64,000 nt of DNA from Escherichia coli. Its GTDB lineage: Bacteria; Pseudomonadota; Gammaproteobacteria; Enterobacterales; Enterobacteriaceae. The DNA is taken from the NCBI RefSeq assembly GCF_003018115.1, contig NZ_CP027457.1. One strand, written 5' to 3'. Position 1 is the first letter of the stretch. Every line of letters begins with the position of its first letter. The notes under the pieces were generated by a model that did not search any database, was not told the origin of the DNA, and worked only from the letters and a program-made list of their open reading frames with translations. Position numbers and translations under genes: made by a program. This document shows positions 41,489 through 41,824 of this stretch, in pieces.

Positions 41489-41824
41489 TTACGAATGATC
41501 ATTCTGTTTAGTCTTCATGAGAAAATCCCGAATCTTTGCCAAGTTTGAATTTTCGGGGATTGAATCCATGTACGGATCACGCTCAAACACTAATTGCTCA
41601 GATTCAACGAAAGCCTGCCACTCTACTGGGTCTAGCTCAAATCCCATTGCTGTCATATCACTTTCATCTTCCCCCTCGATCCAGTGGACTAAATAAAACA
41701 ATTCATCATCAGGAGAATCATCCTCACCATCAACAATATCAACATCGGTTACAGTGATACGTAGGGTGGGATCGATTTTTGAGACATAAATTCCTAACTG
41801 TGGTATAGGGGGAATATTGTTCAT
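41489..41824 (-). CDS. Small highly acidic hypothetical protein (111 aa)
   Basis: AT-rich ORF; long Asp/Glu runs (DVDIVDGEDDSPDDELFYLVHWIEGEDESD); divergent from the DUF262 gene in the A-Q accessory hotspot. Confidence 0.55.
   Translation of the reverse strand: MNNIPPIPQLGIYVSKIDPTLRITVTDVDIVDGEDDSPDDELFYLVHWIEGEDESDMTAMGFELDPVEWQAFVESEQLVFERDPYMDSIPENSNLAKIRDFLMKTKQNDHS

Follow-up and report, generated by a model that had tools for sequence, protein, structure and literature searches.

What is a small, extremely acidic protein doing at the edge of a prophage, and does it act together with the defence-like gene beside it? The question is raised by an open reading frame in a stretch of 64,000 nucleotides of Escherichia coli DNA (contig NZ_CP027457.1 of assembly GCF_003018115.1; hereafter the window), which an earlier note had singled out for its runs of Asp and Glu and for its position next to a DUF262 gene. 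That note had proposed that the product might be a DNA mimic or anti-defence factor, or alternatively a regulator or immunity partner of the adjacent effector, encoded either in a two-component module with the DUF262 gene or as an independent moron. We approached these possibilities through the gene and its protein family, the arrangement of the prophage end in which it resides, the history of the DNA segment that carries it, and the functions that would be compatible with all three.

A small family of polyanionic proteins

The acidic ORF is encoded on the minus strand, with its ATG at 41822-41824 and its stop codon at 41489-41491, and its reported position, length and Asp/Glu-rich peptide strings are all present as quoted. 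Its two features are as follows.

41489-41824, minus strand: DUF8087 (PF26332) gene for a polyanionic protein of 111 aa, identical to RefSeq WP_001059831.1 and belonging to phrog_17127
41831-41836, minus strand: Shine-Dalgarno sequence AAGGAG, 6 nt 5' of the ATG, read from the sequence

The product has a mass of 12.8 kDa, and the isoelectric point that the earlier note had suggested computing is 4.05, with a net charge of -19, in agreement with its description as a charge-dense small protein. Acidic residues number 26 (15 Asp and 11 Glu, 23.4%) against 7 Lys/Arg, with their main concentration in residues 27-68, and the excess of Asp+Glu over a background of 11.5%, which is an assumed value, has a binomial tail probability of about 3e-4.

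RefSeq names the identical protein WP_001059831.1 a 'DUF8087 domain-containing protein'. A word-indexed search of 5.8 billion proteins returned 61 homologues with 50-98% identity, all from Enterobacterales, and PF26332 is the precomputed Pfam domain on each of the 61; when 1.84 billion cluster representatives were searched exhaustively with an HMM, only 35 were recovered as DUF8087, indicating that the family is small. Among the PHROGs the protein matched a single unnamed family, phrog_17127, over residues 1-111 of 111 (E=2e-70), and together with the RefSeq name and the Pfam domain of the homologues this makes the window protein a full-length member of DUF8087. Searches of NCBIfam, and of a copy of Pfam-A that did not include PF26332, gave no match; no defence-protein model in PADLOC-DB 2.0 matched at E<=0.01, and no solved structure was matched by a sequence-profile search at E<=10. 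We found no literature naming DUF8087, PF26332, phrog_17127 or the RefSeq accessions. What was known already is the catalogued DUF family, and what is new is its genomic anatomy, mobility, selection, independence from the defence gene and predicted fold.

The Shine-Dalgarno sequence is kept as AAAGGA or AAGGGA in the other stand-alone copies described below, and pairwise dN/dS is 0.20-0.25 among the three stand-alone copies, which are the closest to one another, and 0.07-0.2 in wider comparisons across the family (pairs with measurable dS). As judged from these ratios and from the homologues, the acidic ORF is a genuine gene and not a chance ORF, and it is under purifying selection (dN/dS ~0.2). 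Among complete E. coli genomes, some copy is present in 213 of 5,426 and the ORF occurs at >=99% identity in 131. Using tblastn with the acidic protein, we obtained no match in 50,697 GenBank phage records and one match in 72,556 plasmid records, that record being itself a P2-like element. Members of DUF8087 occur only in P2-like prophages that are integrated and in islands that descend from such prophages.

The 34 diverse members that we aligned have net charges from -8 to -22 (median -14) and a median pI of 4.06, and the proteins of the family are soluble, about 70-111 aa long and devoid of catalytic or membrane features. Only P8, G11 and W69 are invariant among the 34, ten alignment columns are at least 60% Asp/Glu, D27, D32, D40/E41, D53, D56, E63, D65 and E68 count among the conserved acidic positions, and the acidic loop (residues 31-41) ranges from 0 to 12 residues. 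The alignment thus indicates that negative charge is kept as a property of the family while most of the individual acidic positions are not, and that the invariant positions are mostly hydrophobic, a pattern in keeping with binding or with action as a decoy, and at odds with catalysis. An AlphaFold2 (AF2) model built on the alignment of 34 homologues (pLDDT 82, pTM 0.67) contains five strands and three helices; an SH3-like beta-barrel is predicted, with helices following it. This fold bears no resemblance to the helical dimer of Ocr or to the elongated three-domain dimer of ArdA. Of the DNA-mimic or anti-defence class that the earlier note had offered as one option for the protein, the dense negative charge is borne out across the family; the Ocr/ArdA fold is not, the model predicting an SH3-like barrel in its place.

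Two slots divided by cos

The window contains a prophage of the Peduoviridae that is 186/Fels-2-like, and the part of it that surrounds the acidic gene is arranged in the following order.

37383-38300: dam, first in the order listed here
38297-40711: replication gene A, after dam
40805-40823, plus strand: canonical LexA box TACTGTAAATATAAACAGT, found by regex search
40864-41052, plus strand: orf62 of the SOS operon, after the LexA box
41063-41296, plus strand: DinI-like tum homologue (phrog_189, 1.5e-30)
41305-41334 and 41359-41406: hairpins between the convergent tum and DUF8087 genes
42056-42227, plus strand: cos region, with the right-end sequence and the 19-nt cohesive-end site GGCGTGGCGGGGATACGAG at 42204-42222
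42357-44138, plus strand: DUF262/GmrSD gene, beyond cos
44179-45207 and 45204-46970: portal and terminase genes, respectively, after the DUF262 gene

The DinI-like protein is 41% identical to the C-terminal part of Tum, the SOS antirepressor of phage 186, and the layout of LexA box, orf62 and tum matches the annotated p95-LexA-tum region of that phage. The acidic gene is convergent with this LexA-controlled operon, and SOS read-through could interfere with it. The RNA fold of the intervening DNA (41297-41440) reaches -54 kcal/mol (z = -4.5, with equally good folds in 0 of 200 shuffles), and the hairpins within it (41305-41406) are probably terminators or insulators. A scan of 40700-42400 for Rfam families and structured RNAs returned no family.

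The P2/186 cos 19-mer was not found in the window with up to 3 mismatches, its last 6 bases being different, and the cos site was located by alignment with related phages: the window element aligns with the annotated right end and cos of phage 186 (19-mer GGCGTGGCGGGGAAAGCAT). When six phages and prophages (the window and five relatives) are aligned, conservation ends a few bases past the 19-mer, indicating that recombination breakpoints coincide with cos. Two variable slots are seen, and between them lies a conserved element of ~170 bp with GGCGTGGCGGGGATACGAG at its end. Of the 1,292 E. coli genomes that gave a hit to 41400-42356, most match a cos element of ~150 bp, and it is present irrespective of whether the acidic gene or the DUF262 gene is carried; about 130 of these 1,292 genomes, whose matches are mostly to the cos element, carry the cassette of the acidic gene that is described below.

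The slot between tum and cos is empty in phage 813R9, holds a 225-aa ORF in KP12 and RE-2010, and holds orf97 in phage 186. The acidic gene occupies this slot, within the packaged genome at ~380 bp from its right end, and is transcribed inward; the DUF262 gene occupies the slot between cos and the portal gene, so the two lie at opposite ends of the packaged DNA and adjoin only in its circular or integrated form. They are encoded on opposite strands in the divergent orientation that had been stated for them, and since the 532-bp spacer that separates them contains the cos site of the phage, it is no regulatory region common to both. The region from gpA to portal beside cos is a published defence hotspot of P2, and like the cargo of that hotspot (Rousset et al. 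2022, PMC9122126; bioRxiv 10.64898/2026.02.27.708500), the acidic gene combines a gpA-to-portal place by cos with presence/absence polymorphism and breakpoints at cos; the sampled defence systems are on the portal side of cos, whereas the acidic gene is on the tum side and goes unrecognised by PADLOC. What has been treated as one hotspot is two slots split by cos, and neighbours across cos are consequently not operon partners.

The DUF262 protein itself matches the PADLOC models NsnA (8e-31) and PD-T4-2_A (2e-18), and RefSeq names it a 'GmrSD restriction endonuclease domain-containing protein'. Its matches to defence models (NsnA, PD-T4-2_A and type II REase) are limited to N-terminal residues 7-383 at most, and its C-terminal ~210 residues match only their own PHROG family. 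In E. coli genomes the identical acidic protein (WP_001059831.1), in one case a variant of it, adjoins at least seven named cargos, this one among them.

GmrSD (DUF262): window and E. coli HBUT-L
PIN-domain gene: 28A18CPO003A, beside the acidic variant WP_001059830.1
Three hypothetical genes: GB089
Retron of Ec86/St85 type: T7Express (a BL21 derivative) and pCombat13F7-1
DprA-like gene: EPEC E2348/69
Retron Ec67: JNEC-KY174 and CFIAFB20190167
ImmA/IrrE pair: 65COLEC

The same picture emerges from IMG/VR, in which 26 window-type loci hold 18 cargo classes, only 2 of these loci having GmrSD in that place. In the other direction, the identical GmrSD protein (WP_000818977.1) is found without the acidic gene, and with other contents between tum and cos, in UMNK88 and GCM74-1-1, and the two genes are found together in 11 complete E. 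coli genomes as compared with the 213 that carry the acidic gene. Adjacency and divergent orientation, in the window and in those 11 genomes, are what would recommend the acidic protein as a regulator, immunity protein or antitoxin-like partner of the DUF262/GmrSD effector. Set against them are the cos site, which places the genes at opposite ends of the packaged DNA, and their decoupling in both directions, down to the 2 of 26 loci with a GmrSD neighbour. Conserved co-occurrence is absent, and so are a shared regulatory region and co-transcription, given the opposite strands and the cos site between them. Such a partnership retains hardly any probability and is already refuted by the distribution of the genes. 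The two-component module falls with it, on grounds that the earlier note had itself named, absence of the acidic ORF from related prophages with the same DUF262 gene: UMNK88 and GCM74-1-1 lack it. The DUF262/GmrSD gene is independent cargo of the cos-to-portal defence hotspot, outside the unit to which the acidic gene belongs.

The other alternative, an independent moron, agrees with the data, the acidic gene being inserted between core genes, in a slot that is empty or otherwise filled in related phages, and being combined with 18 cargo classes in 26 loci. Its G+C content is 40%, while that of the window is 50% and that of the phage core genes 51-57%; strong hairpins are found downstream of it, and its only promoter is a weak candidate with a spacer of 19 nt. 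We consider it very probable that the acidic gene is a moron and that it assorts independently of the DUF262 gene. As a phage moron located in a known hotspot it is nothing out of the ordinary; what is unusual is the protein that it encodes, which lends itself to testing. No co-oriented ORF of >=40 aa is found in the window between the acidic gene and tum, where an integrase stub and the hairpins are located, and the adjacent small HTH (aca) gene of an acr-aca (anti-CRISPR) locus is thus absent.

A mobile cassette with an integrase remnant

The unit to which the acidic gene belongs can be delimited by comparing its stand-alone copies, and it includes the following features.

41453-41987, minus strand: mobile cassette, comprising 163 bp upstream, the ORF and 36 bp downstream, in all stand-alone copies
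41452-41502, minus strand: fossil 5' end of a P2-type integrase gene, reading MIIRKCKHPSGKWFCK and then a stop, its start overlapping the 3' end of the DUF8087 gene
41860-41890, minus strand: weak candidate sigma-70 promoter TTCACA-N19-TATTTT, 9/12 in a scan with spacers of 15-19 nt
41872-41887: inverted repeat ACAG-N8-CTGT, between the candidate -35 and -10 hexamers
41905-41987, minus strand: conserved non-coding element of 83 nt, shared by the three stand-alone cassettes at their upstream border

The cassette span is 85-87% identical (blastn) to copies in a P2-like prophage of Providencia and in an island linked to ychF in E. coli, and the flanks are unrelated. In the Providencia prophage the same 535-bp cassette follows ogr and stands beside a Septu-like pair of AAA_15 and HNH genes; in the ychF-linked island of E. 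coli NRZ105822 it is accompanied by NACHT, AAA-ATPase, DEAD/DEAH-helicase and IS genes. A copy of the ychF-island type with ~90% identity occurs in about 80 genomes, one of which was examined, and a further copy of the acidic gene was found in another mosaic region.

A standard promoter scan with spacers of 16-18 nt found none upstream of the acidic gene. The sequence of the candidate promoter with the longer spacer is kept in the NRZ105822 and Providencia cassettes, and the ACAG-N8-CTGT repeat is kept in all three stand-alone cassettes despite differing spacer sequence; as a palindrome conserved at this position, the repeat may be an operator. The 83-nt element recurs, ~80% identical, on 16 large conjugative plasmids from Klebsiella, Citrobacter, Raoultella and E. 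coli, in unannotated DNA between convergent genes (for example at 2501-2583 of locus L031). It folds no better than shuffled sequence (z = +0.6 / +1.4) and matches no Rfam family.

At its downstream edge the cassette carries a trace of its origin. The integrase stub was found by tblastn with the Int proteins (MTVRKLPSGKWLCEC...) that follow DUF8087 in lysogeny operons; it is ~16 codons long in the window and ~56 codons long in the NRZ105822 and Providencia cassettes, and a decayed stub of this kind is found 3' of DUF8087 in every stand-alone copy. In the distant homologues the gene is a member of the lysogeny operon, in the order repressor - Flk_N - DUF8087 - int or repressor - int - DUF8087, and there its stop or start codon overlaps int. 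Taken together, the stub and the operons of the homologues indicate that the window copy is a cassette that was cut from a DUF8087-int junction and moved to the end of the genome. The stub is hence a clear record of the movement of cargo between hotspots, and the acidic gene forms a compact cassette, under selection and transplanted repeatedly, which moves among the same hotspots as defence cargo.

The Flk_N-domain protein that precedes DUF8087 in the lysogeny operons is 209-215 aa long (5343-5990 in locus L010, with equivalents in L009, L016, L025 and L074-L077). The copy in Klebsiella aerogenes has a C-terminal membrane anchor and a weak similarity to Ant antirepressor families (phrog_245, 7e-7), and the Flk_N protein may be a partner of DUF8087. 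A remnant of Flk_N was sought in the window and none was found, and the window's own cI-int region has neither Flk_N nor DUF8087. Remote homologues share no recurrent downstream partner, the 103-aa neighbours in two contexts being mutually unrelated.

Several further observations concern these regions. In E. coli W (NC_017664.1, locus L043, 6307-7758) a gene for a KAP-family P-loop NTPase is located between CI and int, the position that DUF8087 has in the operon of other phages; the segment from A to portal is 99.9% identical between the window and E. coli W, and the CI-int region differs. The integrase of the window prophage appears to be split into two overlapping ORFs (N-terminal part at 34341-34868, C-terminal part at 33829-34353), which suggests a frameshift; past it on the lower-coordinate side is a 348-aa ORF (phrog_17460, 32793-33839), and a 1571-aa ORF is encoded on the plus strand at 27787-32502, at lower coordinates than the lysogeny region. 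One variant of the window-type locus (L067-L069, 6331-7723) has ~1.2 kb of extra DNA between DUF8087 and tum, which encodes a 139-aa protein that looks like a GNAT acetyltransferase on reading its sequence, and a 63-aa ORF. A 97-aa DUF8087 homologue stands alone beside pgsA-uvrC-uvrY (locus L035, 5001-5294, 4 samples), with no integrase or phage gene called nearby; pgsA-uvrC is the chromosomal site of a K. aerogenes P2-like prophage that carries DUF8087, and the sister loci L034 and L036 of this lone homologue retain a NadS/MqsA-like HTH gene and a DinI gene.

Possible roles of the acidic protein

We propose that DUF8087 would act as a stoichiometric electrostatic decoy, a protein mimic of nucleic acid that would sequester a basic protein which binds DNA or RNA. 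When encoded in the ancestral arrangement, the decoy would be made from the prophage along with the repressor and the integrase, and the window copy would be expressed from its own candidate promoter. As target we would guess first at an immune nuclease or sensor by which the element is threatened; DUF8087 would then be a counter-defence factor, and to this mechanism as a whole, which we reach by reasoning from the properties of the family, we assign a probability of roughly 0.35. A stoichiometric mode of action is suggested by the lack of catalytic and membrane features and by the retention of charge while acidic positions vary, and the likeness of its physico-chemical properties to those of known small acidic inhibitors speaks for counter-defence. 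Precedents for such inhibitors include Ocr, Arn, T7 gp5.9, AcrIIA4 and AcrF2, together with CarS, a DNA mimic of SH3 topology. The acidic protein is like Ocr (T7 gp0.3) and ArdA in being small and Asp/Glu-dense, with a pI of ~4 and an accessory position on a mobile element, and the ocr gene of T7 is located at the end of the genome that enters first.

Several observations weigh against this decoy and counter-defence reading. The narrow distribution of the family, with no phage record and a single P2-like plasmid record, is unlike that of widely spread generalist anti-restriction genes; co-transcription with the repressor and the integrase is more typical of genes for lysogenic conversion or exclusion; and the promoter candidate of the window copy is weak. 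Moreover, the characterised cargo of P2 hotspots is overwhelmingly defence, and of 1,511 P2-like elements in a survey of 2026, only 28 were found to carry anti-defence genes (bioRxiv 10.64898/2026.02.27.708500).

Alternatively, the protein might be a competition factor expressed from the prophage and acting in superinfection exclusion or against phages or satellites. Made with the repressor and the integrase in the lysogen, it would bind a protein of an incoming rival, be this a phage or a P4-like satellite, or else a host factor on which that rival depends, and would protect both prophage and host. The ancestral place inside the repressor-int lysogeny operon is what would be expected of such a gene, as is the restriction of the family to the P2-like world, and all locations of DUF8087 (gpA-portal, int-att and int-primase) are recognised P2 defence hotspots. 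The cassette also shares its slot with orf97 of phage 186, for which a note in the record states that plasmid-expressed orf97 blocks 186 infection. Both genes are in the right-end slot downstream of the LexA-controlled tum operon and before cos, yet orf97 encodes 243 aa and is co-oriented with tum, whereas the acidic gene encodes 111 aa on the opposite strand with an upstream region of its own, and the two proteins have no sequence similarity. Purifying selection in an island that is not P2-like, and lone retention beside pgsA-uvrC after loss of the prophage, suggest a benefit to the cell and point in the same direction. On the other side, the protein has no PADLOC match and no sensor or effector domain, and a stand-alone soluble acidic protein of ~100 aa is, to our knowledge, unusual as a defence effector. 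We regard a role in competition as rather unlikely.

A third explanation would turn the protein toward the phage's own lysogeny machinery, with DUF8087 binding Int, the repressor, Tum or the Ant-like Flk_N antirepressor, for instance as an operator mimic of the CarS type that would tune integration or the threshold of induction. CarS of Myxococcus xanthus is a small acidic antirepressor of SH3 topology that mimics operator DNA, and the acidic protein resembles it in being small and acidic, in its SH3-like barrel, which is predicted here, and in its proximity to repressor and antirepressor genes. In line with such a role, the stop or start codon of DUF8087 overlaps int, the gene being placed before int in some lineages and after it in others, and the acidic gene adjoins tum in the window. 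Flk_N is present in the four divergent lysogeny-operon lineages sampled, whose DUF8087 is 41-68% identical to that of the window, and in 4 further IMG/VR loci, and its weak Ant similarity is again relevant. However, DUF8087 is accessory and not core, being carried by a minority of related prophages, stand-alone copies with no int in cis are still under selection, one of them in a non-P2 island, and gene overlaps are common in phage operons irrespective of function. Modulation of lysogeny thus appears to us improbable.

Returning to the decoy, in a more specific form of it DUF8087 would be a new fold class of nucleic-acid mimic, a polyanionic SH3-like barrel that would neutralise a DNA-sensing immune protein or the regulator of a rival. 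The mimic would be expressed from the prophage in P2-like phages and in the derived islands, and in the window from the extreme end of the injected genome. We put this forward tentatively, as less likely than not. P2-like prophages serve E. coli as a major reservoir of defence systems, and almost no counter-defence or regulatory accessory genes are known from them; a mimic of this kind, if true, would give the P2/186 family its first described factor dedicated to counter-defence or to action against competitors.

Because common laboratory workhorses (BL21 and its derivatives, C43(DE3) and E. coli W) and the EPEC prototype E2348/69 carry the acidic gene, these proposals are testable immediately. 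The gene is identical in BL21 and its derivatives, including C43(DE3), in E. coli B strains and in EPEC E2348/69, and a copy is also present in E. coli W and BL21(DE3). In T7Express it stands directly across cos from the effector and reverse transcriptase of retron Ec86 (St85 family).
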